Positions 3,938-62,626 of a stretch of DNA of 64,000 nucleotides are shown here, one piece after another. The first letter of the stretch is position 1; each line of letters begins with the position of its first letter. Source of the stretch: a virus (lineage: Duplodnaviria; Heunggongvirae; Uroviricota; Caudoviricetes); IMG/VR virus record IMGVR_UViG_3300024269_000002; one strand, written 5' to 3'. The notes under the pieces were generated by a model, which searched no databases, was not told the DNA's origin, and saw nothing but the letters and a program-made list of their open reading frames with translations. Position numbers and translations under genes: made by a program.

Positions 3938-6430
3938 ATGTTTGATTCTCTCTGGGGCGAGGACTTTGTCGTCGCTCCTCCTCCAAAACAGCAAAAGAAA
4001 GTCATTGATAAAGTAACTAAACCAAAGAAGGTAACAACGACAACTGAGAAAGTCGCAAAATCTTCTTCGGGAAAAGTAACTACTGCTGAAAAGTTATCAA
4101 TGATTGAGGCGGAAGTTTACAGAATTCTTGGTGTGTACAAAGACCAAACAGTTGTGTTAAGAACAGAAGCAGAATTGGCTGAGTACATAGACAGGGCAAT
4201 CATCAATTCTGTAATTGCGGTTGATACCGAAACAAACAACAGTCTTGTTCCCCTTACATGTAAAATCATGGGACTTTGTTTGTATACACCTGGAATGAAG
4301 AACGCATACATTCCGGTTAATCATGAGAACATCTATACAGGTGAACTTCTACCTGATCAATTAACTGAGCAACAGATTCACGATCAGCTTGCTAGATTAG
4401 AAGATGTTCAAATCATCATGCACAACGGTAAGTTCGACTTTGAGGTTATCAAGTGCACTTGTGGTAATGAACTGGAGATCTTCTGGGATACAATGATTGC
4501 TTCTCGAATTCTTGATGAGAATGAACGAGCAAATCTGAAACAGCAGTATATCAGTAAGATTGATCCATCTATTGAGAAGTATTCTATTGAGAAGCTGTTT
4601 GAAGGAATTGAGTACGCCAAAGTATCTCCTGAACTATTTGCACTGTATGCTGCAACTGATGCGTTCATGACTTACAAGTTGTACGAATGGCAGAAACAGC
4701 AGTTCGCACAGCCTGGCTACGAGCGGATGTACAATCTGTTCAAGAACATTGAAATGCCGATTGTTCGTGTTTGTGCAGATATGGAACTTGCTGGCATTGA
4801 GATTGACACTGAATACGGTAAGCGTTTAAGTGCAAAATATCATAAAAAGCTTGATGCTATTGACAAACAGATTGAAGAAACATTGCATCAATATGATCAG
4901 GTAATTGCCGAATGGAGAAAAACTCCAGAAGCAAATCATAGAGAAAAGAAAGTAAACAAGAAGGGTGAGGAGACTTGGACGAAATCCAAGAACGAACAGC
5001 TATCCGATCCGATGAGCGTAACAAGTCCTACTCAGTTAGCAATTTTCTTCTATGATGTGCTGAAACATCCTGTAGTAGACAAGAAGAGTCCTCGAGGAAC
5101 TGGTGAAGACATCTTGTTGAAGATGGATTATCCCATTGTTAAACTAATCTTGGAAAAGCGTGGCTTAGAGAAGATTATTGGTACATATGTTGATAAACTT
5201 CCTCAATGTGTGATCCCGGAGACTGGAAGACTTCATGCTCATTTCAATCAGATTGGTGCGGACACTGGCAGATTCAGTTCAAGTGATCCCAATTTGCAGA
5301 ATATTCCGTCGCACTTGAAAGACATTCGTATGCTGTTTAGAGCAGCTGAAGGTAAAGTTCTTGTTGGTAGTGACTTTTCTCAGCAGGAGCCTCGTTTGCT
5401 GTGCAGTATGGCAAACGATGAAGCAATGATCGGTGCATATAGAAACAAACAGGATCTTTATGCAACAATTGCTACAAAAGTGTATAACAACGGTTACTGG
5501 GATAACATGGAGCATTATGAGGACGGCTCCCCAAATCCTGAAGGTAAGAAGCGTCGCTCCAACTGTAAGAGTATCTTGTTAGGTCTAATGTATGGTCGAG
5601 GAGCTGCATCAATTGCTGATCAGATTAATCAGCCTATTCAAGAAGCTCAAAAGATCATTGATACATTCTTCAAAGGATATCCTGCAGTTAAGCAGTGGAT
5701 TGATAAAACTCAATCTGATGCAAAGATTAACGGATATGTTGAAGACCATTGGGGCAGACGACGTAGACTTCCGGATATTCTTAGACCTCCTGTAGAGGTT
5801 CGATACACAGATAAGAATCGTGTTGTCGTTCCTTCTGACTTCAATCCTTTACTTGGATCAACTGGTAAATATACTTCAAGTACACGATCTGATATTGATA
5901 TCTACCGCGAAAAAGCTCTTGCAGCTAAGGGTAGAAAAGAGATTGAAAAGTTGAAGACAGAAGCTCTTGCAAAGGGTATTGAGATTCATGAGAACGGTGG
6001 TTTCATTGCTCAGGCTGAGCGTCAGTGTGTCAATGCTCGTATTCAGGGCGGTGCAGCAACAATCACGAAGATCGCAATGAATAAGGTTCATTCTGATCCG
6101 GAATTAAGACGAATGGGCTTCAAGATGTTGATCTGTGTACATGATGAATTGATTGGTGAATGTCCCGAAGAATTTGCAGAAGCTTGTGGCGAGCGACTGT
6201 CTCAGGTAATGATTGATTCCGTTGCAGAAGATGTAGCTTGTCCTATGAAGTGTGACGCAACAATAACTCGTTACTGGTACGAGGATGAAGTTGCTGCCAA
6301 ACTGCAAGAAAAGTTTGCTGATAAGGTGAAGAAGGGTGAAGATCCTGAAGCAGTTAAACAGCAATTCTTGGCCGACAACGAGGAATTAACATACGAACAG
6401 CTTGAAGGACTTCTATCAATGAAGTTATGA
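3938..6430 (+). CDS. polA: Family A DNA polymerase with 3'-5' exonuclease
   Basis: Exo motifs AVDTET, HNGKFD, YAATDA; TGRFSSSDPNLQNIP, DFSQQEPR, KSILLGLMYG, VHDE. Confidence 0.95.
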   Translation: MFDSLWGEDFVVAPPPKQQKKVIDKVTKPKKVTTTTEKVAKSSSGKVTTAEKLSMIEAEVYRILGVYKDQTVVLRTEAELAEYIDRAIINSVIAVDTETNNSLVPLTCKIMGLCLYTPGMKNAYIPVNHENIYTGELLPDQLTEQQIHDQLARLEDVQIIMHNGKFDFEVIKCTCGNELEIFWDTMIASRILDENERANLKQQYISKIDPSIEKYSIEKLFEGIEYAKVSPELFALYAATDAFMTYKLYEWQKQQFAQPGYERMYNLFKNIEMPIVRVCADMELAGIEIDTEYGKRLSAKYHKKLDAIDKQIEETLHQYDQVIAEWRKTPEANHREKKVNKKGEETWTKSKNEQLSDPMSVTSPTQLAIFFYDVLKHPVVDKKSPRGTGEDILLKMDYPIVKLILEKRGLEKIIGTYVDKLPQCVIPETGRLHAHFNQIGADTGRFSSSDPNLQNIPSHLKDIRMLFRAAEGKVLVGSDFSQQEPRLLCSMANDEAMIGAYRNKQDLYATIATKVYNNGYWDNMEHYEDGSPNPEGKKRRSNCKSILLGLMYGRGAASIADQINQPIQEAQKIIDTFFKGYPAVKQWIDKTQSDAKINGYVEDHWGRRRRLPDILRPPVEVRYTDKNRVVVPSDFNPLLGSTGKYTSSTRSDIDIYREKALAAKGRKEIEKLKTEALAKGIEIHENGGFIAQAERQCVNARIQGGAATITKIAMNKVHSDPELRRMGFKMLICVHDELIGECPEEFAEACGERLSQVMIDSVAEDVACPMKCDATITRYWYEDEVAAKLQEKFADKVKKGEDPEAVKQQFLADNEELTYEQLEGLLSMKL

Positions 6431-6453
6431 TACCTGTTGTATAAATATATAAA

Positions 6454-6517
6454 TAAGGGCGGTGTTCGATCCTACAATCCCTCGCCCTTAACAAAAATAC
6501 AAATTCAAACTAAGGAG
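6454..6517 (+). ncRNA. Candidate variant preQ1-I-like riboswitch (translational)
   Basis: Stem TAAGGGCG/CGCCCTTA, loop with GTTCG...ATCCC, A-rich tail ending AAACTAAGGAG; loop TCCT can pair with SD AGGA; directly upstream of a YhhQ-family gene. Confidence 0.6.
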
Positions 6518-6524
6518 AACTTAA

Positions 6525-7274
6525 ATGTTTACAAAGATTAAGAACTGGATAAGATCTGAATTGTCTGACTATTCAGTACTACTTCGGAGCGTCCCATCAA
6601 CTGTAGTTTGTCTGTTCGTTGTGAGTGTGGTTATGATGAACTTACTTGCAAATAAGACATTGATTCAGCTTGACTGGATTGCGTTAGATGGTGGACTTCT
6701 TGTGTCTTGGTTAGCTTTTATGAGCATGGACATCATTACAAAGCACTTTGGTCCAAAAGCATCTACAAAGGTTTCGATTTTCGCAAGTGCAATAAATCTA
6801 CTTGTGTGTTTCATTTACTGGGTTGCAAGTATCATTCCTTCTACAGCTGATGATTACACAGCTTTCAATTCCATTATTGGTGGAACTTGGTTTATTCTGC
6901 TTGGTAGTACAATTGCATTTATTCTTTCTGCATTCATTAACAATACAATTAACTGGAGTATTGGAACTCTGTTCAAGAAGAATCCTACTGGAAAGGTAGC
7001 GTATTTTACAAGAACATATGTTTCTACTGCTCTTGGGCAATTCTGTGATAATCTGATTTTTGCAGTGATTGTATTTATGGGATTTGCTCCAATCTACTGG
7101 AACGGCTTCCACTGGACATTTATTCAGTGTGTCATGTGTTCTCTAACCGGTGCAGTTGTTGAGCTTTTATTCCAAGTTGTTTTCAGTCCAATTGCATGGA
7201 ATATTTCTCAGAACTGGAAAAAGATGAATGTTGGAAAAGATTACTTAGATAAGCATCCTGAGGTTGTTGAATGA
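6525..7274 (+). CDS. yhhQ: YhhQ/VUT-family queuosine-precursor (preQ0/preQ1) transporter
   Basis: About 6 TM helices; NLLANK, DIITKHFG, R.YVSTALGQFCDNLIF motifs typical of COG1738. Confidence 0.82.
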   Translation: MFTKIKNWIRSELSDYSVLLRSVPSTVVCLFVVSVVMMNLLANKTLIQLDWIALDGGLLVSWLAFMSMDIITKHFGPKASTKVSIFASAINLLVCFIYWVASIIPSTADDYTAFNSIIGGTWFILLGSTIAFILSAFINNTINWSIGTLFKKNPTGKVAYFTRTYVSTALGQFCDNLIFAVIVFMGFAPIYWNGFHWTFIQCVMCSLTGAVVELLFQVVFSPIAWNISQNWKKMNVGKDYLDKHPEVVE

Positions 7275-7534
7275 TTGATTACTTGATGAGTCTCAATAAT
7301 CCAGTTTCGATGATTGGATTGGTTGCAAGCATCATTGTTCTTGTGTCAATGTGTTTCAATCCGTCAACAAAGAGAGGAAACATCATGATGAGATCAGTTA
7401 ACCTGATCGGTAGTATTGTTTCTGTTATCTATGGTGTTCTTCTCGGACCACTAGGTGCAGGAATGATCTTACTCAATGGTGTGCTTGTATTTGTAAATGC
7501 GTACTATCTAATTGTAACACTTAAGCACAAATGA
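7271..7534 (+). CDS. Small 3-TM membrane protein (YgjV-like)
   Basis: IGLVASIIVLVS...R.VNLIGS...IYG...LN...VN.YYL pattern; ATGA-coupled to yhhQ. Confidence 0.6.
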   Translation: MIDYLMSLNNPVSMIGLVASIIVLVSMCFNPSTKRGNIMMRSVNLIGSIVSVIYGVLLGPLGAGMILLNGVLVFVNAYYLIVTLKHK

Positions 7535-7540
7535 TGTAAC

Positions 7541-7595
7541 AGGCGCAACTATTTGAGGTATAATTTATCTCAGTAAGATAGTTGCGCCTTTGTTT
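7541..7595 (+). terminator. Long-loop hairpin / terminator
   Basis: AGGCGCAACTAT...ATAGTTGCGCCT 12-bp inverted repeat followed by TTGTTT. Confidence 0.6.
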
Positions 7596-7687
7596 AACTA
7601 CAATTCTTCCTAAATCTTGGAAGAAACAACAACTTACAAAGAATATCTGTTTGCTGATTCAAGATAAGATCAACTTGTAAAAATTCT

Positions 7688-7718
7688 AGTTGATTATTCA
7701 ATACAGTAAACTTATAAT
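7688..7718 (+). promoter_or_regulatory. Phage promoter P2
   Basis: TTGATT 7690-7695, N17, TATAAT 7713-7718. Confidence 0.85.
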
Positions 7719-7761
7719 ATGAATGTAAACAAACTATAAAGAGGAGGAAACTGTACGCAAG

Positions 7762-8970
7762 ATGAGCTGTCAAGTTTATTACTACAGTGGTGCATATGAT
7801 CCACAGCTGAAGAGAGATCTGAATATTGATCAGCTGTTTTCAGTGTATCACGAAAAGAAACTGATTACTGAGACAATCAAGTACAAGCGGGAGCATCCTG
7901 AGTATACAGCACGGATCATGTGTGATAGTGGTGCTTTTACTCATTTCCAGCAAATGAAGAAAAAGGGTCTAACTCTTACTGATGAAGATATCATCGAGTA
8001 TACAAACACATATCTGGAGTTCCTGAACGAGTGGGGCGACGGTTTGGATTGTTTCGTTGGTGTCGACTCTGTTCCTGATCCTGAAAATGTTGATCCTACA
8101 TATGGTGACAAAACCTGGGAAAACTATCTGTATATGTGGGAAAGACTGAAGCCTGAAATTAGACACAAGTTAATTCCTGTATTCCACTATGGTGAGGAGT
8201 GGAAGCATCTTGTAAGATTCTTGGAGTATGTTCATCCTGATGGTAGCAAGTTGGACTACATTGGTCTGGCTATCTCCTTGGAAGGAACCCGTAAAGTAAG
8301 AATCAACTGGGGTCAGGATGCAATGAAGATTATTGCTAACAGCAGTAATCCGAATGTTAAGACTCACGCTTTCGGAGTCGGCGTTAAGTCTGTTCTGGAG
8401 CACATTGATGTGTATTCCACAGACGCAACTTCATACTTGAAGAGAGCTGCATACGGAATGATCAGCATTGACGATAAAACTATCTATGTCAGTGATATTC
8501 AGAAAGAACTGCTTCGTGGAAATCACTATTCGGAGAAGTCAGCGGCTTACCAGAAGTCAGTTGAAGATATCATTCATGAGAGAGGGTTCACTCTGAATCC
8601 GTATGAGCTGAATTACACCTTTATGGATGCAGATACAGTCAAATTTACACTTGATGGTGAAGAGTATCATGTTCATAAGGACAACGATACGAATGTCTTG
8701 TTGATTCATGGTGACGAAATTGATACACTTAAACTGAGTGTTGCGGAAGAGGCTCCTGAAGGTGCTGATAAGTTTTTTGGAACTTGGGAAGCAAAGCGCA
8801 AGAGTCTTGTGTTTGATGGTCTTGGAACTGTTCAGTTTGATCCTGGTAATGCACTTGCAACAAACTGTTATGCAAGAGCAGTGTTCAATATTCAGGATAC
8901 TGAAAACTGGATGCAGGCAATTAGAACAATGCCTCCTGCAACAATCAAGACCAAAGTTGAACTGTGGTAA
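7762..8970 (+). CDS. TGT-fold DpdA-like base-exchange transglycosylase
   Basis: CDSGAFT, VGVD, LIPVFHYGE, YIGLA, HAFG and STDATSY motifs of phage TGT-like proteins; next to yhhQ. Confidence 0.72.
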   Translation: MSCQVYYYSGAYDPQLKRDLNIDQLFSVYHEKKLITETIKYKREHPEYTARIMCDSGAFTHFQQMKKKGLTLTDEDIIEYTNTYLEFLNEWGDGLDCFVGVDSVPDPENVDPTYGDKTWENYLYMWERLKPEIRHKLIPVFHYGEEWKHLVRFLEYVHPDGSKLDYIGLAISLEGTRKVRINWGQDAMKIIANSSNPNVKTHAFGVGVKSVLEHIDVYSTDATSYLKRAAYGMISIDDKTIYVSDIQKELLRGNHYSEKSAAYQKSVEDIIHERGFTLNPYELNYTFMDADTVKFTLDGEEYHVHKDNDTNVLLIHGDEIDTLKLSVAEEAPEGADKFFGTWEAKRKSLVFDGLGTVQFDPGNALATNCYARAVFNIQDTENWMQAIRTMPPATIKTKVELW

Positions 8971-8980
8971 GAGGTGGAAT

Positions 8981-9688
8981 ATGAAAGTATTGATAACTGG
9001 AACTAGCTGTGGCGTCGGTCGAGCAGCAGCTATTAAGTTCCTTGATGAAGGCTATGTGGTTTGTGGACTTGATTGGAAAGAGTCCACAATCGTGCATTCA
9101 AATTACAAGCATTATCAGTGCGATGTTGGTAACATTGATGAACTCCCTGTAATTCGTGGCATCAGTTACATTGTTAACAATGCTGGAATTGTTACTCCCA
9201 AAGCAGATGCTATTCGAGTAAATCAGATCGGATATATCAATGTAATTGAGACTTATGGATATGATCCTGAACTCAAGAGCATCGTTAACATTGGTTCTAC
9301 AGCGTCCATCAAAGGATATGATAATCTTGAGTATTGTTCTTCTCAGGGAGCTCGAGACGCAATTACAAAGTGGGCTGCAAATAATTTCGGTAAAGATGAT
9401 CGACATGTTATTGTTAATGGTTTGAACCTTGACGGCATTGTTGCTGCGGATCCTGAAAAGGGTATTCAAGGCACATCTCTTGAGCCTGAACTTTATGCTC
9501 GTCCTGAGTTGATGGATGAAATTGCTAACTTGAGCATTCTTAAGAAGTTGGCAACAGTAGAAGAAATCGCAGAATGGATTTTCTTCCTTCTTGTTAAGAA
9601 TACTGTTATGACAGGTCAGATTCTCAACATTGATGGTGAGTTGATGGGAGCATTCAAGTTTATTCCATATCCTGGCTGGAATAGCTAA
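8981..9688 (+). CDS. Short-chain dehydrogenase/reductase with atypical YxxxQ
   Basis: TGTSCGVG, NNAG, NIGS, YCSSQ, MTGQILNIDG; start 8981 after GAGGTGG. Confidence 0.88.
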   Translation: MKVLITGTSCGVGRAAAIKFLDEGYVVCGLDWKESTIVHSNYKHYQCDVGNIDELPVIRGISYIVNNAGIVTPKADAIRVNQIGYINVIETYGYDPELKSIVNIGSTASIKGYDNLEYCSSQGARDAITKWAANNFGKDDRHVIVNGLNLDGIVAADPEKGIQGTSLEPELYARPELMDEIANLSILKKLATVEEIAEWIFFLLVKNTVMTGQILNIDGELMGAFKFIPYPGWNS

Positions 9689-9702
9689 TCAGGAGGAGCA
9701 AT

Positions 9703-10587
9703 ATGGCAAAAATTGTTGGTCTCATACCTTGCTTGATGTTGGAAAACAATCGAGCAGCAAACAATGAGGCAATTGAACACAACTACAAGCATCTCAATCT
9801 GGATGCAGTCGTAATCTACGATCAGGCATTTGCAGAGTCAGACTATGATCCTCGATATCAGTATGTTGGACATCAACCTGATCGAGTTGGTTTCACGAAT
9901 GCACGTAACGGTCTTCTTGAGTGGTTCTACAACTCTGATTATGATTATGCTCTATGGTTGGATGCAAACGAAAAGGTGTCTACTCCTACAATCAATGACA
10001 CTGTAACTGTTATTGAAGCAATCAAAGCTGATCAACTCAACAAGATTGATGTTATTTTTGCAACTCTGGGTTTATGGGTTTCTCAGGACCGTATTGTTGC
10101 GAAGCAACGTGAAGATTATATGACTCATGTTCAGCTGATTCCTGCTCTCAATAACAAGAGCTACAACTGGATGCATGGACTGATTATGAAGAACTTCAAG
10201 AAGTACTACAATCAGCCTGTGTTCATTGACTCTCGTTGCGATGTTAAGCTTGGAACACCTGAGGATGTTTATTTTGCTCGTCTTGTTAGACGCTATTTCA
10301 ATGCATATGTTGCTCCAACTGTTGTTATAACGAAACCCAGTTCAAACACCTCGACTCATGCAGGTGACGGAAAAGGTAAGTATGTTTATCCGCCTGTTAA
10401 GTTTGAGGAGGTTGATCAGTACATTCTTGAATCTGTTGAGCAGAATGATATCAAACAGTGTAACATTCAGTGGTTCAAAGATCCTGTTAGTATCCCTAGA
10501 CAAGATTACATGAAGGATAAAGTAACTCCTTACAAATCTCGAAAGAAAGAATCACCCTCTCCTGTGACTAAGGTTGGTCTTTTCTAA
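9703..10587 (+). CDS. GT-A fold (GT2-like) glycosyltransferase
   Basis: GF.NARN.LL, DYALWLDAN (DxD variant), EDVYF. Confidence 0.6.
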   Translation: MAKIVGLIPCLMLENNRAANNEAIEHNYKHLNLDAVVIYDQAFAESDYDPRYQYVGHQPDRVGFTNARNGLLEWFYNSDYDYALWLDANEKVSTPTINDTVTVIEAIKADQLNKIDVIFATLGLWVSQDRIVAKQREDYMTHVQLIPALNNKSYNWMHGLIMKNFKKYYNQPVFIDSRCDVKLGTPEDVYFARLVRRYFNAYVAPTVVITKPSSNTSTHAGDGKGKYVYPPVKFEEVDQYILESVEQNDIKQCNIQWFKDPVSIPRQDYMKDKVTPYKSRKKESPSPVTKVGLF

Positions 10588-10617
10588 GTTGAATGAGACC
10601 AACTATCAATATATAAT
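10587..10617 (+). promoter_or_regulatory. Phage promoter P3
   Basis: TTGAAT 10589-10594, N17, TATAAT 10612-10617. Confidence 0.85.
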
Positions 10618-10652
10618 GTTTATGTACAAATTCTGAAAGGAAGAATTATAGA

Positions 10653-11780
10653 ATGATTTGTCGAATTGAAGAACTCCAGAATTCCTGTAGTAAGATTCTT
10701 GCTGCAGTGGATTCAAACGCACTGTCCGTACTTACTGAAACTCTGCAGCTGAAGACTGAAGGCAAGGATCTGTTTATCAGTGTCACGAACCGTGAGTATT
10801 TTGCTCAGGTCCGAATTCCTATGAACGAGGAAATTGAGTTCCATGCAACCGTCAATGCAAATCTGTTCCTGAAGTTGGTATCTCAAATCACAACTGATAC
10901 CATTGAGATGAACATTGTTGACTCTGCACTTGTTCTCAAGGGCAATGGTACCTACAAACTGCCTCTGATTTTTGATGGTGATGCTCTGTTGGAGTTGCCT
11001 GAAATCAGCATTGATAACGCTACTGTGAATTTTGAGATTGACAGTGCTGTTCTGTTGAGTATGCTCCAGTTTAACAGTAAGCAGCTGTCTCAGGGTATTA
11101 TCTCCAAGCCGATTCAGAAGCTCTATTACATGGATGAGGCAGGTGCTGTGACATTCACTACCGGTGCGTGTGTTAACAGTTTTACTCTGCAGCAGCCTGT
11201 TAAAATCTTACTGAATGATCGTCTTGTTAAACTGTTCAAGCTGTTCAAAGGTGAGAAGGTTCAGTTCACTCTTGGTTATGATGCATTGAGCAACGATATC
11301 ATCCAGACCAAGGTTAGATTTGCAACCAGTGACATCATTATTACTGCAATCTTGTCTTGCGATGATACAATGTTGAGATCTTTCCCTGTCAACGCAGTTC
11401 GTAGCCGTGCAAATGCTGCTTATCCTTACTCTGTTAACATCAATCGCGAAGCTCTGATTCAGACCATCAGCCGTTTGCTTCTGTTTAGCTCTGCTAACAG
11501 TGCGAAGGATGTTATCAAGCCCTACAGTGTCTTCGAGTTCAAGAAGGACAGTGTTGTAGTTTATGACGCTAAGAAAGAGAACAAGGAAGAGGTGTACTAC
11601 ACCAATACTACTTGTGATATGGAAAATAACTATAGTGCTCTGTTGGATCTGAATGATCTGAAGCAGACTCTTGAGACTTGTACTGAACAGTATGTCACTA
11701 TTCATTTCGGTGATGGTCAGGCTGTTGTTCTTTCCAGAGGCAATGTCAAGAATGTTATTCCTGAGTGTATTCTGAACTAA
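10653..11780 (+). CDS. dnaN: DNA sliding clamp (beta-clamp-like)
   Basis: 375 aa with beta-clamp-like pattern (L.ISVTNRE; NREALIQTISR; VTIHFG); clamp loader genes nearby. Confidence 0.75.
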   Translation: MICRIEELQNSCSKILAAVDSNALSVLTETLQLKTEGKDLFISVTNREYFAQVRIPMNEEIEFHATVNANLFLKLVSQITTDTIEMNIVDSALVLKGNGTYKLPLIFDGDALLELPEISIDNATVNFEIDSAVLLSMLQFNSKQLSQGIISKPIQKLYYMDEAGAVTFTTGACVNSFTLQQPVKILLNDRLVKLFKLFKGEKVQFTLGYDALSNDIIQTKVRFATSDIIITAILSCDDTMLRSFPVNAVRSRANAAYPYSVNINREALIQTISRLLLFSSANSAKDVIKPYSVFEFKKDSVVVYDAKKENKEEVYYTNTTCDMENNYSALLDLNDLKQTLETCTEQYVTIHFGDGQAVVLSRGNVKNVIPECILN

Positions 11781-12251
11781 TTGGCAATTTCTCGAGGTAA
11801 ACAATTCGAGGGAAAATTTCGAGATGACTTCAAGAAGCTGACAGGTAGTTTTGTTTATAGACTACCTGATCAGACTTCAGGAAATCTCGGATCTCGAAAC
11901 TTGTGTGACTTTATCTGTTATGTTTACCCGAATCTTTATATTCTGGAAGTGAAGAGCGTGGGTGGTAATACATTCCCAATCACAAACTTCACACAGTATC
12001 AGACAATGCTCCAGTACAGGGGAGCTCCTGGTGTGAAGATGGGTGTTGTTATCTGGTATACAGAAAAAGACACTGTTATATATGTTCCACTAAAAACAAT
12101 TGAAAAGATGAAACAGGACGGAAAGAAATCTGTTAATATTCGGACTATTGATGATGATGGCTATGAGTATGTGTCAATTCCATCTGTTAAGAAACGAGTG
12201 TTCTTAGATTCTGATTATTCTGTTTTGTTAGATTTACCGGAAGGATGGTGA
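11781..12251 (+). CDS. RecU-like Holliday junction resolvase
   Basis: SRGKQFE, CDF, LEVKS, Q motif (PD-(D/E)xK). Confidence 0.75.
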   Translation: MAISRGKQFEGKFRDDFKKLTGSFVYRLPDQTSGNLGSRNLCDFICYVYPNLYILEVKSVGGNTFPITNFTQYQTMLQYRGAPGVKMGVVIWYTEKDTVIYVPLKTIEKMKQDGKKSVNIRTIDDDGYEYVSIPSVKKRVFLDSDYSVLLDLPEGW

Positions 12252-13918: not shown

Positions 13919-14284
13919 ATGCCTCAGCGTAGACATAGAGACGATAAAGTTCAGCCAACAAGACATTACAGTAAACAGCAAGAAAATAAAGTAGCTTCTA
14001 AGTTAGGAGGAACAAGAACTCTCAACTCAGGAGCTACCCCTTACCAGAAGGGTGATGTATTAACTGAGAAATTCTTACTTGAATGTAAAACAAAGACTTC
14101 CGCATCAGCTTCTATATCTGTTCAGAAAGAATGGTTAGATAAGAACGAAAAAGAAGCACTGTTTATGGGAAAGCCCTACAACGCTCTTGCATTCAATTTT
14201 GGGCCTGGTGAAAAGAATTACTACATCATTGATGAGTACTTGTTTGAACTCTTGTTGGCTGCATTAGAAACAGGAGAGCAATAA
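13919..14284 (+). CDS. PD-(D/E)xK nuclease / resolvase
   Basis: QE..VA, NSGA...KGDV, LECK. Confidence 0.7.
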   Translation: MPQRRHRDDKVQPTRHYSKQQENKVASKLGGTRTLNSGATPYQKGDVLTEKFLLECKTKTSASASISVQKEWLDKNEKEALFMGKPYNALAFNFGPGEKNYYIIDEYLFELLLAALETGEQ

Positions 14285-14907
14285 TGCTACTAGAATACAA
14301 GCACTTACTTGAAGACATCGATGATGGACACCCAGAATACGATAAGTATCTAGATCAACATATCAGTAATGTTAGAAAAGGGTACGAATGGTTCAAGAAG
14401 AATCTTCCGCATCTTCTTGACGAACATAACTTCATTGAGGATACGGCTTACTATGGTGAGCTAGAAGATATAATTGATCAGCATGATCAATCTAAGTATA
14501 GAAGAATTCCAGAAACAACAAATTACTATGAACTCCGTTGCGAGTATGATGCTTATGCAGATTACTTCTATGGTGAGAAGAATGATGAAACAAAAGAGGC
14601 ATTTGAGCGTGCTTGGTTGGCTCACATTCATTCAAATCCCCATCACTGGCAGCACTGGGTTCTTGTTAATGACGATGATGGAACTAAGGCGCTAGATATG
14701 CCCTATGTCTTCATCATTGAAATGATTTGTGATTGGTGGAGTTTTTCTTGGAAAGAAAATAATCTTGCTGAAATTTTCAGTTGGTATGAGGATCATACAG
14801 ATAAGATTATTTTCAGCGACAAGACAAAGGATCGCGTAGAAAACATTCTTTCTCAGATGAGAGAATTGATTGTAGGAGCTGAAAATGAACAAGGTAAGGA
14901 CAATTGA
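14284..14907 (+). CDS. DUF5662-like HD-fold protein
   Basis: HDQSKY, AW.AH...NPHHWQHW, EMICDW. Confidence 0.65.
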   Translation: MLLEYKHLLEDIDDGHPEYDKYLDQHISNVRKGYEWFKKNLPHLLDEHNFIEDTAYYGELEDIIDQHDQSKYRRIPETTNYYELRCEYDAYADYFYGEKNDETKEAFERAWLAHIHSNPHHWQHWVLVNDDDGTKALDMPYVFIIEMICDWWSFSWKENNLAEIFSWYEDHTDKIIFSDKTKDRVENILSQMRELIVGAENEQGKDN

Positions 14908-15376
14908 ACAGCAACTTGCTGATGTTGACAGTCAACTTGCAGAACTGTATAAGAAGAAGGATGATCTTAACAAGGAATTGAAAATCATTCAGGAACATAA
15001 GTTACAGCAAGAAGTCGAAAGATGGAAGCTCAAAGAAGGCACATGTTACTGGATGTTTAATAAGGATAACGATTCCGTTTACAGTACTTTGTATGGATAT
15101 CAGATTGTGAAGATTCGTGAGGATCAATTCTTCACAATGATTCAAACAAAGTATTCAATTGAGTCTGGAGATCCTAACTTCGATGTACATGAAGTAACTT
15201 GTTCATTGCATGCACTCAGAACTCATAGAGAAGAGAACAATGTGTATGTTGTAGACCCTACGCATTATAGAGAATTACAGATACGACTCTTGTCACTTGA
15301 CATTGATTCTCTTCTGATGTTGAAAGAAGTTGAGGGAGAGCTTGTTAAGCCTCGTGCTTTATATCAAGTTGAATGA
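14885..15376 (+). CDS. Hypothetical protein with N-terminal coiled coil
   Basis: ORF with AGGAG RBS in operon. Confidence 0.6.
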   Translation: MNKVRTIEQQLADVDSQLAELYKKKDDLNKELKIIQEHKLQQEVERWKLKEGTCYWMFNKDNDSVYSTLYGYQIVKIREDQFFTMIQTKYSIESGDPNFDVHEVTCSLHALRTHREENNVYVVDPTHYRELQIRLLSLDIDSLLMLKEVEGELVKPRALYQVE

Positions 15377-15397
15377 TCCTTCCATCTACAATATAAT
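15367..15397 (+). promoter_or_regulatory. Phage promoter P4
   Basis: TTGAAT 15369-15374, N17, TATAAT 15392-15397. Confidence 0.85.
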
Positions 15398-15434
15398 AAT
15401 GATGTAGAAATAATAACTGGAGGATGATGTACAT

Positions 15435-15785
15435 ATGAAAAAGCGGCAGATCTTGAAGCTCGAAGATAAGGAGCTTGATAAACTTATCAAAATTCAAGGA
15501 ACTCAGTATGACCGAAAACGAAAATTATCTGATAAACAGGTCGAGAAGGCAAGAATTCTGTACGCCAAGTATGATGCATCACTTTGGGACTTGGCTGTTA
15601 TGTTCGGTGTCAATGTTAGAACGATAAGATACAATCTTCAAAGTTCTTATCGAGCACATAGACTTGAATATGCTAAGGCTCATCCTCAGACAACCAGAAA
15701 ACAGTATGATCACACCGCTGCACTGAGCGATCGAGTTGCATACAAGAGAAAGCTCGTAGCTCGTGGAAAGGTTTGTTGCGTGTAA
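15435..15785 (+). CDS. Basic helix-turn-helix DNA-binding protein
   Basis: RKLSDKQV...SLWDLAVMFGVNVRTIRY; own promoter and terminator. Confidence 0.75.
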   Translation: MKKRQILKLEDKELDKLIKIQGTQYDRKRKLSDKQVEKARILYAKYDASLWDLAVMFGVNVRTIRYNLQSSYRAHRLEYAKAHPQTTRKQYDHTAALSDRVAYKRKLVARGKVCCV

Positions 15786-17910: not shown

Positions 17911-18702
17911 ATGGTAGTAGGTCAAGAGAAAATATGTAACTTGATTACAAATGCCACTTTGGATGACTTCCCCCGGTCACTAATGCTTGTTGGTCCAAAA
18001 GGAGGCGGCAAGCATCTTATCTGTAAGTATATTGCCGATAAATTCGGTTTGATAACTGTTGATTTAACTGATCAGTTGGATCTTGAAACCATTGAAGAGC
18101 TGTATAATCGAGTTGAACCTTATCTATACATCATTCGTGTTAATGAAATTTCTGTTAAAGAAGAAAACACAATCTTGAAGTTTTTGGAGGAACCTCTAAA
18201 GAATTCATTTATTGTACTGATTGCAGAAACTGATATGGGAATACTGCAAACAATTCTGAATAGATGTCAAATCTGGCATCTGCAGAACTATACTAGAGAG
18301 TATCTAGCTACTTTCATTGAAGGCGGGAATGATTACATTCTAGAAATTGCACAAACTCCAGGACAGGTAATTGACTTGTGCAAGACTGATTTCTCTTCAA
18401 TGATTGATCTTGCTGATAAGATTATTGACAAGATTGCAGTAGCAAGTATTACAAATACTTTGACACTAAGTAACAAAGTTGGATTCAAGAATGATCCTGA
18501 TAAACCAGATGTTAAATTATTTGTTAATGTGCTGTTGTCAAGAATAGCATCTCGCTGTAAAGGAAGCAGCGATGTTAGATTTGTTAACAGTTATCATCTA
18601 ACAAATCATCTACAAAGAAATCTTCAAATAAAGAATTTGGATTATCGAGCTCTATTTGAAAAGTATCTTATTGAGCTTCGTGTTATCATGAAAGGAGCAT
18701 AA
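17911..18702 (+). CDS. holB: Clamp loader delta-prime-like subunit
   Basis: GPKGGGK, NTILKFLEEP, TILNRC. Confidence 0.8.
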   Translation: MVVGQEKICNLITNATLDDFPRSLMLVGPKGGGKHLICKYIADKFGLITVDLTDQLDLETIEELYNRVEPYLYIIRVNEISVKEENTILKFLEEPLKNSFIVLIAETDMGILQTILNRCQIWHLQNYTREYLATFIEGGNDYILEIAQTPGQVIDLCKTDFSSMIDLADKIIDKIAVASITNTLTLSNKVGFKNDPDKPDVKLFVNVLLSRIASRCKGSSDVRFVNSYHLTNHLQRNLQIKNLDYRALFEKYLIELRVIMKGA

Positions 18703-18704
18703 CT

Positions 18705-19625
18705 GTGACAATTCAAGAATTGAAAGCTCAGATTGAAGCAGGAAATGTTACTCATGATCTTATTATTTTCAAAGACACTGAAGGTAACTTTATTTCCAAT
18801 CAGTACATCCGTGCAATTCAACGATTGAGAAATCAGGAGATTCAGTATCTAGAATCCCCTATGGAGCTCATTCAGGATTCATGGTCAATTTTTGGATCTG
18901 ATGATCTGGCTGTTGATAACACACTTCGTGTTATCAAAACTGATTCATTCATCTGGACCAGCCTCAGGATTATGGACTTGAAGGATGTTATTATTGTTGT
19001 ATCAAAGTTTTCCGATAAAACTATTGAGAAACAGTTTGAGACATGTGTCGTCAATGTTCCGAAAATCGAGGATTGGATGCTGAAGGATTATGTGTATTCA
19101 ACAACTGAAGGTGTAGCTCAGAAAGATCTTGATTGGCTCATGAATCTTTGTGGAAAGAATCGTGATCGTCTTCAGATGGAACTTGATAAGTTAACTTTGT
19201 TCGGTGTTGACGAAAGAAAGTATCTTTTCAACGATCTTATCAGAGATGGAGCTGTTGATGATTTGAGTTCTTACAGCATCTTTAATTTCACGAATGCAAT
19301 CACATCGAAAGACATGAAGATGCTCATGACAATCTACAAAGAGCTTGATCGTGTGGATGTTAATGAGTTTGGTTTGTTGACTATTCTTGTCAAGAACTTC
19401 AAGAATATTCTGATGGTTCAACTTACTTCAAATCCCACTCCGGAGTCAACAGGAATTGATGGAAAACAGTTGTATGCTGTTAAACGGATACCTCGTGTTT
19501 ATTCTCCTGATCAACTTGTTAAGATATACCAGATGCTTCTTGACATTGATCGTCAAGTCAAGACTGGTGAACTACCAACGGATATCTTGATTGATTATAT
19601 CATCATCAAGATTCTTAGCGCATAG
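18705..19625 (+). CDS. holA: Clamp loader delta-like subunit
   Basis: LQMELDKL, IFNFTNAI, DRQVKTG. Confidence 0.75.
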   Translation: MTIQELKAQIEAGNVTHDLIIFKDTEGNFISNQYIRAIQRLRNQEIQYLESPMELIQDSWSIFGSDDLAVDNTLRVIKTDSFIWTSLRIMDLKDVIIVVSKFSDKTIEKQFETCVVNVPKIEDWMLKDYVYSTTEGVAQKDLDWLMNLCGKNRDRLQMELDKLTLFGVDERKYLFNDLIRDGAVDDLSSYSIFNFTNAITSKDMKMLMTIYKELDRVDVNEFGLLTILVKNFKNILMVQLTSNPTPESTGIDGKQLYAVKRIPRVYSPDQLVKIYQMLLDIDRQVKTGELPTDILIDYIIIKILSA

Positions 19626-26701: not shown

Positions 26702-26765
26702 ATAAGACTCGAGAACAACATGATTTATTTCTGTTTGTAAACTCGAGTCTTATTTGTTTGTTTTG
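26702..26765 (+). terminator. Long-loop hairpin / terminator
   Basis: ATAAGACTCGAG...CTCGAGTCTTAT 12-bp inverted repeat followed by TTGTTTGTTTT. Confidence 0.55.
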
Positions 26766-26774
26766 AGGAGAATT

Positions 26775-27332
26775 ATGGTTGCACTAGATCACATGAAAAC
26801 AATTCTAACTCACAAGAAGTGGGTGTTTTACTTTGCTCGTAAACTTGGCATAGGTTGGCAAGGTTTTTGGCACGATATGTCAAAGTTTAGTCCTACAGAA
26901 TTTCTAGAAAGTATCAAGTACTATACTGGAACTAGTAGCCCCATTGATGCTTGTAAGAAAGCTAATGGATACAGCATGGCTTGGTTACATCATAAAGGCA
27001 GAAATGCACATCATTATGAATATTGGCAGGATAACTTTGATAAGGGTGGCGAGCCGCTGAAGATGCCTGACAAGTATGTTCGTGAAATGATTTGTGACTA
27101 CCTTGCAGCCGGACGAGCTTATATGGGCAAGGATTTTCATTTCGCATCAGAATGGCAATGGTGGCTGAATAAAAACAAGAATAATATTGCAATGCATCCA
27201 GAAAACTGGAAGGTTGTTAATGAAGTTCTTGAGTCTCTGAATAACACCTTTGGAACAAAGCGCATTGAGGAATTAACATATCATAACTGGCTTCATTTCA
27301 AGCACATTGTAGATAAAGCTCTGTCAAACTAA
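26775..27332 (+). CDS. DUF5662-family HD-fold protein
   Basis: HDMSKFSPTEF, AWLHHKGRNAHHYEYW, EMICD. Confidence 0.8.
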   Translation: MVALDHMKTILTHKKWVFYFARKLGIGWQGFWHDMSKFSPTEFLESIKYYTGTSSPIDACKKANGYSMAWLHHKGRNAHHYEYWQDNFDKGGEPLKMPDKYVREMICDYLAAGRAYMGKDFHFASEWQWWLNKNKNNIAMHPENWKVVNEVLESLNNTFGTKRIEELTYHNWLHFKHIVDKALSN

Positions 27333-27994: not shown

Positions 27995-28651
27995 ATGGAT
28001 AAACATGTAAAGAATATTATCACCGACGAAGCAGCTCTTAGCGAGTGGAGTGTTGAAATTGACACACGTAAGGAGGGTAAGCTCCTTCAGGAAATCATCC
28101 TTGCTTTGAAGGCAACTATGAAAGCTAATGATCTGATTTCCCTTACAGCTCCTCAGATTGGTTATAATCGTCGTGTTATGTGTATGAGATTCGGCAAGAA
28201 TGATTATAGAACATTTATCAATCCTCTTGTTGAAAATAACACGAATTTTCAGTTTGCAAGAGAAACTTGTTCTAGTATTCCAGGTAAAACTTTTGTTATG
28301 CCCAGATTTAACAACGTGAAGCTGTTCTTTACCACCCCTCTCGGTAAAGTAGAGTCTACCAAGTTGTCTGGAATGTCTGCATGGAAGTTTCAGCACTGTT
28401 TAGATCATTTGAATGGTATGTTGTCTTCAGACATTGGTCTTGAAATTGATGATATGTTTGATAATGCAACTGATGAGGAAAGAGCTGAAGTTCTTAAAAT
28501 GTATGCAGAATCTCTGGATGTTCGCCAGAAAGATCTAGAGGCAGAAATTGCTGAGGATAAGAATCTTTCTGATATCAACAATGCTGCTAAGTTTATTGCT
28601 AGTGTCAAGTCAGGTGAAACTATTCTCGATAACTCAGAGTTGAAATCATGA
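27995..28651 (+). CDS. Peptide deformylase homologue with degenerate active site
   Basis: LTAPQIG, FINP, ETCSSIPG, FQHCLDHLNG (HEXXH changed to HCXXH). Confidence 0.8.
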   Translation: MDKHVKNIITDEAALSEWSVEIDTRKEGKLLQEIILALKATMKANDLISLTAPQIGYNRRVMCMRFGKNDYRTFINPLVENNTNFQFARETCSSIPGKTFVMPRFNNVKLFFTTPLGKVESTKLSGMSAWKFQHCLDHLNGMLSSDIGLEIDDMFDNATDEERAEVLKMYAESLDVRQKDLEAEIAEDKNLSDINNAAKFIASVKSGETILDNSELKS

Positions 28652-28669
28652 TTTTCACGAGGTCTAGTT

Positions 28670-29056
28670 ATGGCAACAACTATTAGAGTAAAAAGAAAAA
28701 AATCAACAGGAAATAACGGTGTTGTATTAAAGGCAGGAGAACCATATTACAATCTGTTTGATAGGCAACTGTATGTAGGTGATGGATCAACAGATTTTCC
28801 GGAACGCTCTGTCACACATATTCATGAATATCATCGCTTTGACGACGACACTGTGGCTTTTAGTATCGGACCTAACGGCGAAGATGATAGAATTCATAAT
28901 TTCTATGTGAAAAAGATAAACAATGTTGATGTTGCAAAGGGAATCATTTTGCATGATATGTACTACGGCGATGAAGCAAAGCGAGCTCAATTAAGCGAGA
29001 AATTCCCGGACGGTAAGATTCCTGCGGGAACAGTCTTCTTCCAAGAAGCAGAATAA
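28670..29056 (+). CDS. Small protein with tail-fibre N-terminal-like (L..GE...LYVGDG) motif
   Basis: IRVKR...LKAGEPYY....LYVGDG. Confidence 0.55.
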   Translation: MATTIRVKRKKSTGNNGVVLKAGEPYYNLFDRQLYVGDGSTDFPERSVTHIHEYHRFDDDTVAFSIGPNGEDDRIHNFYVKKINNVDVAKGIILHDMYYGDEAKRAQLSEKFPDGKIPAGTVFFQEAE

Positions 29057-29074
29057 CTATGATTGGACGTAAAC

Positions 29075-29683
29075 ATGAATAACATTAGATTAAAAGGTAT
29101 CATTACAAATATTGAGCCTTCTCACGTTATTCAGGGAATTGAATTTAACAAAGCAAACCTTATTGTAAAACGAGATGATGGAAAAGAGGATTCACTGAAT
29201 ATCAGATTCAAGAAATTCTCCAATCCGTATGAAGATAATCAGGAAATTACATTATGCGGTAATGTTAGATCTTATTCCTCAAAACTTGAGGACGGAAAAA
29301 ATCGTGTTGAACTGTATGTATTTACATATTTTGATCAGCCCGAACTCAATGAGAATGATCAAGAAGAAACAAACAGATTAGACGTTGATGGTCGTATCTG
29401 TAAGATCGATACAATCAAACATACCAGAAGTGGCAAGAAAAATATTCATTTGATCTTGGCTAACAACTTGATTGTTAGTGAAGGAACAAAGAAGCTCAAT
29501 TCTTACATTCCTTGTATTGCTTGGGGACCTGTAGCTGAAAGACTAGAGAGTCTTCCCGTTAACACACAGTTAAAGATTCGTGGCGAACTGCATTCAAGAG
29601 AGTACAAGAAGAATTTACCTGATGGCTCTTTTGAGTTCAGAGTTGCACACGAATGTGTAATCAATGATTTTGAGATTCTATGA
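29075..29683 (+). CDS. ssb: Tandem OB-fold single-stranded DNA-binding protein
   Basis: NNIRLKG...GNVRSY; second OB SYIPCIAWG...GELHSREY.K. Confidence 0.78.
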   Translation: MNNIRLKGIITNIEPSHVIQGIEFNKANLIVKRDDGKEDSLNIRFKKFSNPYEDNQEITLCGNVRSYSSKLEDGKNRVELYVFTYFDQPELNENDQEETNRLDVDGRICKIDTIKHTRSGKKNIHLILANNLIVSEGTKKLNSYIPCIAWGPVAERLESLPVNTQLKIRGELHSREYKKNLPDGSFEFRVAHECVINDFEIL

Positions 29684-43964: not shown

Positions 43965-44615
43965 ATGAAGAAGTATTCTGTACAAGAAGTTTTTGATCTC
44001 CTTGGTAAGGAAGCTCTGTGTGTTCAAGAAGTGCGCCACGGTAACAGGGCAAGTATTGAGGTTGAAGGGTATCAGGTCCATCAGAAGTCTCTCAGATATG
44101 CAACATTCTATCAGAAAGGACTGAAATGTGCATGTTGCGGGAAGGAAGGTTCATACTTCTTGCTTGAGCCGGATCGTACAGGAGCGGCTGCAGCTACTCG
44201 ACGACATTTCAATCTGTATGCTGAGGACGGCACTCTGATGACTAAGGATCATATCCGTCCTAAGAAATGGGGTGGTCAGGATGTGGTCGATAATCTCCAG
44301 ACCATGTGTGAACCTTGTAACAGAAACAAGGGCTGTCAGTTCAACGAAGAAGTTGATTGCATTGTTGGTACAAAAATAACTAACGGTGAAGAGATTGTGT
44401 GCTTCAATATTGAGGATGCAGTTTATCAAGCGTGTATTCTTACTGGGGCTATGTCGAAGAACAAGAAGCCTGGTAAGCTGACCAAGCAAGTAATTCACAT
44501 TGCCCTTCGTATGAGGGATGTAGTCGATACTGATCAAACATACGCAGGTTGTTACTGGAAGACCTGCAAACGAAAGATGGAAGGAGTTTCCTATGAGGGA
44601 CCTAACTCTAGATGA
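43965..44615 (+). CDS. HNH endonuclease
   Basis: CACCG...TKDHIRP...GG.D..DNLQTMC..CN..K. Confidence 0.85.
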   Translation: MKKYSVQEVFDLLGKEALCVQEVRHGNRASIEVEGYQVHQKSLRYATFYQKGLKCACCGKEGSYFLLEPDRTGAAAATRRHFNLYAEDGTLMTKDHIRPKKWGGQDVVDNLQTMCEPCNRNKGCQFNEEVDCIVGTKITNGEEIVCFNIEDAVYQACILTGAMSKNKKPGKLTKQVIHIALRMRDVVDTDQTYAGCYWKTCKRKMEGVSYEGPNSR

Positions 44616-62619: not shown

Positions 62620-62626
62620 CATTTAA

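Follow-up and report, generated by a model that had tools for sequence, protein, structure and literature searches.

What would a gut phage do with a queuosine-precursor transporter, a DNA guanine transglycosylase, an SDR and a glycosyltransferase (GT), in a genome in which we found no genes for making the precursor? These genes lie in the window, the whole stretch of 64,000 nucleotides that was analysed, which belongs to a 204-kb gut phage genome; the phage record is linear and about 92% complete according to CheckV. Five ORFs, all on the + strand, fill the interval between polA and the clamp gene (Table 1), and all of those that an initial annotation had listed there are present: yhhQ, a small membrane protein, a TGT-like protein (DpdA), an SDR and a GT-A protein. 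The five genes are under purifying selection (dN/dS 0.03–0.25 against two relatives), and an independent bovine-gut contig covers the whole stretch unbroken, with 141 differences and 1 gap. Contigs from RNA runs of relatives span cassette genes as well, which is not proof of transcription; for habitat, runs with a small share were left out.

Table 1. Positions of the cassette, its leader and its flanking genes in the window
Feature	Position	Strand	Basis or remark
polA	3938-6430		upstream flank of cassette
preQ1-I-like riboswitch candidate	6455-6517	+	P1, loop, A-rich tail, loop-Shine-Dalgarno pairing
YhhQ/QPTR (Vut_1), queuosine-precursor transporter	6525-7274	+	PF02592 E 4.6e-24
87-aa membrane protein, SemiSWEET/YgjV-like, optional part	7271-7534	+	relatives' weak profile matches
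DpdA1-type DNA guanine transglycosylase	7762-8970	+	phrog_887 E 1.8e-33; Dp-1 DpdA homology
Atypical SDR	8981-9688	+	adh_short_C2 E 1.3e-10
GT-A (GT2-like) glycosyltransferase	9703-10587	+	AlphaFold + Foldseek vs PDB; D87-A-N89, D188
Clamp gene	10653-11780		downstream flank of cassette

The window had been noted to lack folE, queD, queE, queC and queF, and none of them was found in the rest of the genome either. The five genes were absent from Pfam scans of 227 ORFs (window, genome and relatives), tblastn with the que proteins of Dp-1 and Flasso found none, and six-frame searches of the genome for the QueC and QueF families were equally negative. None of 10 phage records had QueC, and 8 of the 10 are at least 90% complete. 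The gene set of the de novo phage pathway to dPreQ0, dPreQ1 or dG+ was not found in this roughly 92% complete genome. Tetranucleotide bias revealed the usual avoidance of palindromes and no target motif. We asked whether an adenylosuccinate-synthetase-like gene in the window might be PurZ and decided against it on inspection by eye; it retains the Asp of GDEGKG, which we take to separate adenylosuccinate synthetase from PurZ.

The transporter is a clear member of the YhhQ family (COG1738; PF02592 at 86 bits, cut-off 27.2), is 62–66% identical to bacterial YhhQs that are linked to an SDR, and is nested among them. The 87-aa product of the next gene is a membrane protein, as annotated initially; the three segments ascribed to it are only plausible, with two above threshold in a crude hydropathy scan. 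Its relatives match MtN3_slv (E 6.5e-6) and Imp-YgjV (E 3.7e-5) weakly, a SemiSWEET-like protein with three transmembrane segments is plausible, and the gene is found in many cassettes, not all.

The transglycosylase is homologous to characterised phage DpdAs: Dp-1 DpdA is both its best match in cultured phages and its nearest characterised relative (30% identity, E 1e-25), and 9g DpdA matches with E 2e-7. Four residues, D55, D102, H142 and D221, are invariant in 45 of 45 DpdAs and align to Dp-1, Flasso and 9g; we presume that they play the roles known from TGT, namely the Asp of DSG, the base-binding Asp, the His of PxFH and the nucleophile Asp of DxTS. An invariant E174 aligns with Asp in the DpdAs of the QueF phages Dp-1 and Flasso and with Gly in 9g. 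The predicted structure (pLDDT 92) has a core of alternating beta/alpha elements and an all-beta insertion of about 90 aa (about residues 281–365). Comparison of the protein with PDB sequences gave nothing significant, and the insertion found no usable match in the Atlas. The DpdA homology, the catalytic residues and the missing que genes lend good support to the earlier proposal that a precursor is imported and inserted into DNA; as far as genes can tell, base salvage with DpdA insertion is well supported.

The leader of yhhQ suggests how such import may be controlled. A P1 helix (6455-6464/6480-6489) encloses a 15-nt loop and is followed by an A-rich tail, and loop bases can pair with the yhhQ Shine-Dalgarno sequence (6513-6517). 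This element lies at the very start of the interval of the initial annotation, where it had been overlooked. An H-type pattern composed after the leaders had been inspected matches once in 204 kb on both strands, at the yhhQ leader, and is present in 16 of 19 phage yhhQ leaders versus 1 of 286 other genes. MAFFT left the leaders out of structural register, so that no covariance model was made and pairs were counted by script anchoring. P1 positions 2–6 are paired in 86 of 90 cells (43 ± 5 when rows are shuffled) and the loop pairs with the Shine-Dalgarno sequence in 73 (61.9 ± 3.5 shuffled), both in rows selected by the pattern and hence biased towards pairing. The candidate has the covarying P1, the loop–3' pseudoknot, the A-rich tail and the Q-gene context of preQ1-I. 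Rfam reported nothing at its cut-off in the window and relatives; RF00522 gave no match in the window, and scored below threshold only at two bacterial sister leaders (21.8 and 20.5 bits versus 39). yhhQ genes are known to occur under preQ1 riboswitches (PMC5372724), and our full-text literature search listed no phage preQ1 riboswitch.

The SDR starts at ATG 8981, preceded by GAGG. It displays the classical TGxxxGxG and NNAG motifs and an acidic residue after beta2 (Asp31, NAD-type), together with S106, but the catalytic YxxxK reads Y118-C-S-S-Q122; R125 is invariant. The DpdA-linked phage clade carries Gln at the Lys site, as do 120 of 120 top homologues, a change that could mean reduced or different activity. 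A pattern scan of 185,579 genomes returned only distant generic SDRs (21–28% over long matches), and neither SDR nor GT had a match in 50,697 records of cultured phages. A profile search, however, uncovered a bacterial sister family in 23 of 300 genomes, which keeps the Lys in 21 of 23 members (2 could not be parsed) and adjoins yhhQ in 21 of 23 loci, with one fusion. These gut bacteria have tgt (22/23) and queA (22/23) and lack queF and queC (0/23 each), as control genomes also mostly do (queF 5/40, queC 3/40). Each has a single TGT-family match, preQ1-type TGT residues were present in 4 of 4 genomes tested, and the loci have no phage context. TIGR01212, used to profile QueL, occurs alike in SDR-positive and control genomes and does not separate them. 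One SDR locus (L133) adjoins a gene pair that looks nucleoside-hydrolase-like and ECF-S-like by eye. The gene context of the sister SDRs is pointing to an undescribed enzyme of queuosine salvage; our full-text literature search found no paper on such a role, and a mention in supplements is possible. The initial annotation had placed the redox step after insertion. The descent of the phage SDR from a bacterial salvage family linked to yhhQ makes the free base, after import, a likelier substrate than DNA into which the base has been inserted.

For the GT, Foldseek of the predicted structure (pLDDT 91) bears out the GT-A fold named earlier: all matches are GT-A enzymes (best E 3.5e-8), and its Atlas neighbour has PF00535 on 30% of members. 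TM-scores of about 0.5 do not name the acceptor, and cell-wall GTs rank equally high; the top match, AvpGT (PDB 9jn3 with Ara-A), has 14% identity and TM 0.47, no better than TarS/TarP. The DxD site is a D87-A-N89 variant and D188 is invariant. Comparison with PDB sequences gave nothing significant; 60 of 70 family members match phrog_2456 (glycosyltransferase) and 4 of 70 weakly match phrog_842 (beta-glucosyl-HMC-alpha-glucosyltransferase).

DpdA, SDR and yhhQ co-occur across unrelated uncultured phages. The SDR gene lies downstream of DpdA in 37 of 43 DpdA-seeded loci; the other six are five contigs that end too early and one distant DpdA of the de novo type. All 14 GT-seeded loci have a Gln-type SDR and a DpdA-like gene; some of these loci are in small siphovirus-like contexts, and their DpdAs fall into three or more clades. 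The initial annotation had staked its proposal on SDR and GT accompanying the TGT-like gene in relatives, and this neighbourhood survey did not refute it: the SDR is a regular part of the cassette, while the GT is optional (present in 11 of 16 DpdA-seeded lineages, missing in 5). Across 57 clamp-seeded loci, the polA–clamp interval is empty or holds de novo que genes plus DpdA, other GT sets, yhhQ with other T-fold/QueC-like genes and DpdA, or yhhQ with a Lys-type SDR and DpdA; judging by these contents, it is a swappable DNA-modification slot. The GT family appears in 7 of the 57 loci, each with a Gln-type SDR; none of the 10 loci that have DpdA without this SDR contains it. One locus (L199) combines yhhQ and a Lys-type SDR with a DpdA 42% identical to that of Dp-1, in a slot without queF. 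Relatives also carry CofD/YvcK-HAD and NTP-transferase or RmlD genes; the 6 clusters in which we found CofD-HAD with NTP-transferase all have them behind the GT.

Our preferred reading, which we rate at slightly below an even chance, is that the cassette imports a queuosine-family base, remodels it by the SDR as a free base, inserts it by DpdA and glycosylates it, under a riboswitch-like leader. YhhQ would take up queuine, or a precursor related to it, from the gut, and intracellular preQ1 would bind the leader, hide the Shine-Dalgarno sequence and turn translation off. In the weakest step, the NAD-dependent SDR would act on the free base: the ancestral Lys-type enzyme would most likely have oxidised the cyclopentene-diol of queuine and released preQ1, replacing QueL without radical chemistry. 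The Gln/Arg enzyme of the phage may do the same or stop short, leaving on the side chain a group that can serve as acceptor. If it merely made preQ1, the confinement of the GT to Gln-type cassettes would be unexplained. DpdA homology argues strongly that a cationic preQ1-type base would be inserted post-replication. The GT would then add a sugar from a host NDP-sugar to the 7-side chain, which would protect the DNA against restriction enzymes and against glycosylases specific for deazaguanine. Precursor, sugar and linkage of the product are those that we infer.

The sugar-bearing deazaguanine of the initial annotation is retained here, while its analogy to galactosyl/mannosyl-Q becomes a rival. 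DpdA might insert queuine itself (dQ), with the Gln-type SDR oxidising, epimerising or merely carrying the diol uncleaved and the GT O-glycosylating it. The diol is a natural GT-A acceptor, lineages without GT would bear plain dQ, the GT was never found with Lys-type or de novo cassettes, and some YhhQs cluster by queuine salvage (PMC5372724). Yet the nearest characterised DpdA inserts preQ1, and dQ stayed under the detection limit in every phage tabulated in PMC6884629; we regard dQ as unlikely. More doubtful is the order first proposed, in which imported preQ1 or preQ0 is inserted first and then, as part of the DNA, altered by the SDR (for example to give a hydroxymethyl or N-alkyl arm) before glycosylation. 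The Gln-type gene stands behind dpdA, unlike the Lys-type gene behind yhhQ, the new invariant residues G84-Y85, R125, E168-P169 and Y172 mark a changed function, and DNA-bound preQ1 is the proposed target of DpdM (PMC10516641); but the SDR is compact (235 aa) without an added DNA-binding part, and its bacterial sisters adjoin a transporter in genomes with one TGT-family match and outside phage context.

We give equally little credence to the GT being a passenger of an anti-defence slot that glycosylates another base, a protein or the cell surface, while salvage yields a base already known, dPreQ1 or dPreQ0. Its patchy presence, the unrelated GT sets that gather in the slot and the teichoic-acid GTs among the top fold matches would fit, but Gln-type SDR and DpdA are kept in every GT-seeded locus across unrelated phage types, and genome scans showed no hydroxymethylase or TET/JBP gene. 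Service to tRNA, with Q or glyco-Q raised on the phage's own or host GUN tRNAs, appears very improbable. YhhQ and probably the bacterial SDR belong to tRNA Q salvage, and the 17 tRNA calls in the genome include tRNA-Asn(GTT) and tRNA-Tyr(GTA). These lie about 60–80 kb from the cassette, however, and the transglycosylase, which is of the DpdA type with His142 and without a Pfam TGT match, sits among replication genes.

A bolder version of the preferred reading, possible in our view and held with less conviction, would make the product the first case of a glycosylated purine analogue in DNA, namely a queuine/preQ1-derived deazaguanine with a sugar cap, drawn from a diet or microbiome micronutrient. 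A preQ1 riboswitch encoded by the phage would set the dose, and relatives would extend the base further through CofD-like phosphotransfer. The SDR would represent an undescribed, Fe-S-independent queuine-to-preQ1 salvage family of gut bacteria, captured by phages and retooled by the Lys-to-Gln switch. The predicted base would be a ninth deazaguanine in DNA, sugar-bearing, beyond the eight listed in PMC10516641, and its sugar could plausibly protect against host glycosylases directed at deazaguanine DNA (bioRxiv 10.1101/2025.10.29.685425). The cassette may explain how 'DpdA-only' phages obtain their base and would link the DNA chemistry of gut phages to the supply of queuine. The sister SDR is a candidate for a missing enzyme of bacterial queuosine salvage, the leaders may be a family of preQ1 riboswitches carried by phages and missed by Rfam, and the DpdA and GT pair would be a DNA-labelling tool.

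Among known systems, the preQ1-I riboswitch (RF00522) shares with the phage leader a short P1, a loop starting UU/UA and ending C, the A-rich tail, the loop–Shine-Dalgarno pseudoknot and the place upstream of yhhQ; the phage leader differs in its longer, variable loop, its score below the Rfam cut-off and its phage-borne setting. The DpdA1 system of Streptococcus phage Dp-1 likewise has a DpdA1-type gene directly upstream of the clamp gene, a precursor transporter (QueT) and an acidic residue at the same DpdA pocket position. Dp-1, however, synthesises its preQ1 de novo with folE and queD, E, C and F, its product is unsubstituted dPreQ1 (PMC6884629), and it lacks an SDR, a GT and an annotated riboswitch. 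The same source has DpdA-only phages, some with YhhQ, that lack synthesis genes and for which uptake is proposed; two of them, Orion and 7-11, show little or no modification, and the main text mentions no SDR or GT, with no word beginning 'glycosyl' or 'dehydrogenase' (PMC6884629). That no described phage pathway pairs DpdA with SDR and GT, as stated initially, agrees with our full-text literature search; a mention in supplements is possible. DpdM (methyl) and DpdN (formyl) resemble the cassette in that a second enzyme elaborates the 7-side chain of dPreQ1, unlike our proposed product in that none of the eight derivatives listed in PMC10516641 bears a sugar. Glucosyl-hmC of T-even phages likewise has a sugar added to a modified base after replication, but the acceptor is a pyrimidine made at the nucleotide level, and no transglycosylase takes part. 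AvpGT and the galQ/manQ tRNA glycosyltransferases are GT-A enzymes acting on nucleoside-type acceptors, a free nucleoside or tRNA in contrast to the DNA proposed here. QueL is a radical SAM enzyme, and here an SDR would hold that role. In other respects the indirect queuine salvage of QueK/QueL is close to what we propose for the cassette and the sister SDRs, with a transporter and an enzyme that regenerates preQ1 for tgt and queA (PMC11130926).

The window lies in a linear record of 204,199 bp (about 92% complete) whose capsid, portal and tail-tube genes are T4-like; close relatives of the phage are present in faecal and bovine-gut sequencing runs. All five ORFs that the initial annotation had placed between polA and the clamp gene (yhhQ, a small membrane protein, a TGT-type protein, an SDR and a GT) could be confirmed; they are under purifying selection, and an independent single contig covers window positions 5000-12000 unbroken. 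The annotated lack of que synthesis genes alongside them also held, as Pfam scans, tblastn and a six-frame family search agree in finding none in the ~92% complete genome. In relatives, additional ORFs (DUF7487 endonuclease-like and others) are inserted after the small membrane gene, ahead of dpdA.

Features of the polA-clamp cassette and of the rest of the genome (W, window; R, whole virus record G000:C1)
Feature	Position	Remark
preQ1-I-like leader candidate	W 6455-6517	stem-loop, A-rich tail and Shine-Dalgarno; candidate H-type pseudoknot
yhhQ	W 6525-7274	between polA and clamp
87-aa membrane protein gene	W 7271-7534	between polA and clamp
Strong inverted repeat	W 7529-7605	separates small membrane gene from dpdA
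DpdA-like gene	W 7762-8970	between polA and clamp
SDR gene	W 8981-9688	between polA and clamp
GT gene	W 9703-10587	between polA and clamp
DUF5662 paralogues (three)	W 14284-14907, 26754-27332; R 44022-44630	
FAD-dependent oxidoreductase	W 55400-56791	
Thg1	W 60269-61096	
Adenylosuccinate-synthetase-like gene	W 61741-63805	with upstream partners
Hint-domain protein	R 14798-15781	
Tad8 anti-Thoeris	R 18618-18881	
Tpt1/KptA	R 28605-29222	
17 tRNA calls	R 186877-204157	including Asn(GTT), Tyr(GTA)

Sequence comparison places the transglycosylase in the DpdA family. Its closest cultured match is the Dp-1 DpdA (30%, E 1e-25), followed by other DpdA1 proteins, that of phage 9g among them. D55, D102, H142 and D221, invariant in 45/45 aligned homologues, line up with the Dp-1, Flasso and 9g enzymes. 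E174 is also invariant; in the sequence alignment it stands opposite an Asp in the two QueF-encoding phages (Dp-1 and Flasso) and opposite a Gly in the 9g enzyme, a hint that the substrate is a cationic base of the preQ1 type. The predicted structure (pLDDT 92) contains a confidently folded, all-beta insertion (residues ~281-365, window 8602-8856), which is found in ~400-aa DpdAs, is absent from ~310-aa relatives and had no match in the Atlas.

The GT-A assignment made earlier is borne out by the structural model (pLDDT 91), which among the matches listed resembles GT-A enzymes throughout, with AvpGT, TarS and TarP at the top (TM ~0.5). Sixty of 70 family members match a phage GT family and four the T-even glucosyl-hmC GT family. 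A CofD/YvcK-HAD fusion and a MobA-like NTP transferase are encoded directly 3' of the GT in L055 (8912-11371), L056, L034, L035, L045 and L057; such genes were located only behind the GT. In L066, an RmlD-like gene precedes it.

The linkage of SDR and GT to the TGT-like gene, on which the initial annotation had built its proposal, recurs in relatives. The SDR lies downstream of DpdA in 37 of 43 DpdA-seeded loci; five of the remaining contigs end too soon and one carries a distant de novo-type DpdA. When SDRs were clustered at 88% identity (9 contigs without a full SDR excluded), a DpdA-like gene accompanied 24/24 clusters, and the GT was present in 18, absent from 5 and undetermined in 1; within the determinable DpdA-seeded clusters it occurs in 11/16. 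All 14 GT-seeded loci, which span ParB-terminase siphovirus-like contexts and at least three DpdA clades, have a DpdA-like gene and an SDR in which Gln replaces the catalytic Lys (Gln-type). Neither SDR nor GT had a match among 50,697 cultured phage records; QueC was found in 0/10 and QueF in 0/5 phage records.

In a clamp-seeded survey (58 loci, of which 57 new ones were analysed), the stretch from polA to the clamp proved to be a modification slot with swappable contents: it is frequently vacant, and elsewhere carries de novo que genes, a different salvage set or a different set of GTs. The window's GT family occurred in 7/57 loci, each time with a Gln-type SDR, and in none of the 10 having DpdA without one. 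Other fillings, labelled partly by eye (L195/L196, L200, L201, L205, L208, L211, L228, L230, L234, L217), include yhhQ with a small T-fold protein, a QueC-like protein and DpdA; a GT-B with two yhhQ and DpdA; de novo que sets; paired GT-A; kinase/GT-B/methylase-like genes; and a sugar dehydrogenase with an epimerase.

The window SDR retains its NAD-binding motifs, Ser106 and Tyr118. Gln replaces the catalytic Lys in 120/120 top homologues, and an invariant Arg sits three residues past it. Profile search revealed a sister family that keeps the Lys (Lys-type). Of 300 genomes sampled within the class to which a Eubacteriales genome belongs, 23 encode it. The sister SDR adjoins yhhQ in 21/23 loci, and one bacterial locus (L131) has a YhhQ-SDR fusion; of the two other loci, the first is truncated where its contig stops, and in the second the sister SDR adjoins a nucleoside-hydrolase-like and ECF-S-like gene pair. 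These genomes carry tgt (22/23) and queA (22/23) and neither queF nor queC (0/23 each; controls 5/40 and 3/40), and therefore need preQ1 from outside or a converter. Four of four TGTs examined keep the Cys and Val that we take to be preQ1-type residues. Because classical SDRs act on secondary alcohols, which to our knowledge only queuine and Q bear among salvageable precursors, our lead is that the sister SDR likely oxidises a queuine-family diol, releasing preQ1; alternatively, it could act in a QueF-like manner. A profile for QueL (TIGR01212) matched SDR-carrying and control genomes alike. The bacterial yhhQ-SDR operon (L112-L134) is a candidate locus for a new queuosine-salvage enzyme.

In a quick tree that left out the later-found Lys-type phage SDRs, the 17 Gln-type sequences from phages cluster together, separate from the 23 bacterial SDRs (SH-aLRT 99). 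Those Lys-type SDRs (L197-L199), 64-68% identical to the bacterial sisters, lie directly behind yhhQ, with DpdA present and the GT absent; here the slot acquired the bacterial operon independently. A deaminase, guanine deaminase-like by eye, separates SDR and dpdA in L199 (6839-7309). The window YhhQ nests among SDR-linked bacterial YhhQs, which suggests a clostridial host. The yhhQ genes of L001 and L030 share only ~43% identity with that of the window, against 80-95% for neighbouring genes, a sign of repeated swapping of the transporter with host-like alleles. Optional neighbours of yhhQ encode a 162-aa nucleoside 2-deoxyribosyltransferase-like product (L023, L043, L057), possibly a Q nucleoside/nucleotide hydrolase, or a ~200-aa SGNH hydrolase (L003, L017, L063, L071).

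The leader of yhhQ is likely a preQ1-I variant. An H-type pattern, drafted after leaders had been viewed, has a single match across all 204 kb of the genome (0-3 in simulated sequences) and is present in 16/19 phage yhhQ leaders versus 1/286 other genes. It also occurs, along with several stray matches, 5' of yhhQ in L195, L197, L199 and L200, none used in drafting. P1 positions 2-6 are paired in 86/90 cells (18 leaders), with many pair types, against 43 in row-shuffled sets, the observed figure being inflated because rows were selected by the pattern; loop-SD pairing was 73 versus 61.9 +/- 3.5 for loop shuffles. Rfam RF00522 gave no score on the window, and 21.8 and 20.5 bits on two bacterial sister leaders (cut-off 39). 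A preQ1-I-like leader precedes some bacterial yhhQ-SDR operons.

Given the observed gene content, families, conservation, linkage and motif changes, we tentatively favour, at slightly less than an even chance, a pathway in which a queuine-family base would be imported under preQ1 feedback, remodelled as the free base by the SDR, inserted by DpdA and glycosylated on its 7-side chain by the GT. Direct insertion of queuine followed by O-glycosylation is an unlikely course by comparison. An SDR working on DNA is somewhat less probable still, and we rate equally low a known base with an unrelated GT. A tRNA role for the cassette seems very improbable. A sugar-capped deazaguanine in DNA is common to three of these five readings.

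The initial annotation knew of no phage pathway pairing DpdA with SDR and GT; likewise, a literature search stopping short of a 2024 review and of supplements yielded no description of the cassette. DpdA-only phages, some with YhhQ, appear in the excerpted text of Hutinet 2019 (PMC6884629). Excerpts of Cui 2023 (PMC10516641) list eight derivatives, none glycosylated; those of a vibriophage preprint (10.1101/2024.12.24.630238) mention GTs in other contexts, and those of PMC11888242, PMC11130926 and PMC5372724 make no connection from SDRs to yhhQ or to DpdA. The window system differs from the de novo deazaguanine pathway in lacking its que genes, and resembles the Dp-1 DpdA1 system in its mode of working and, by sequence, in its DpdA family.
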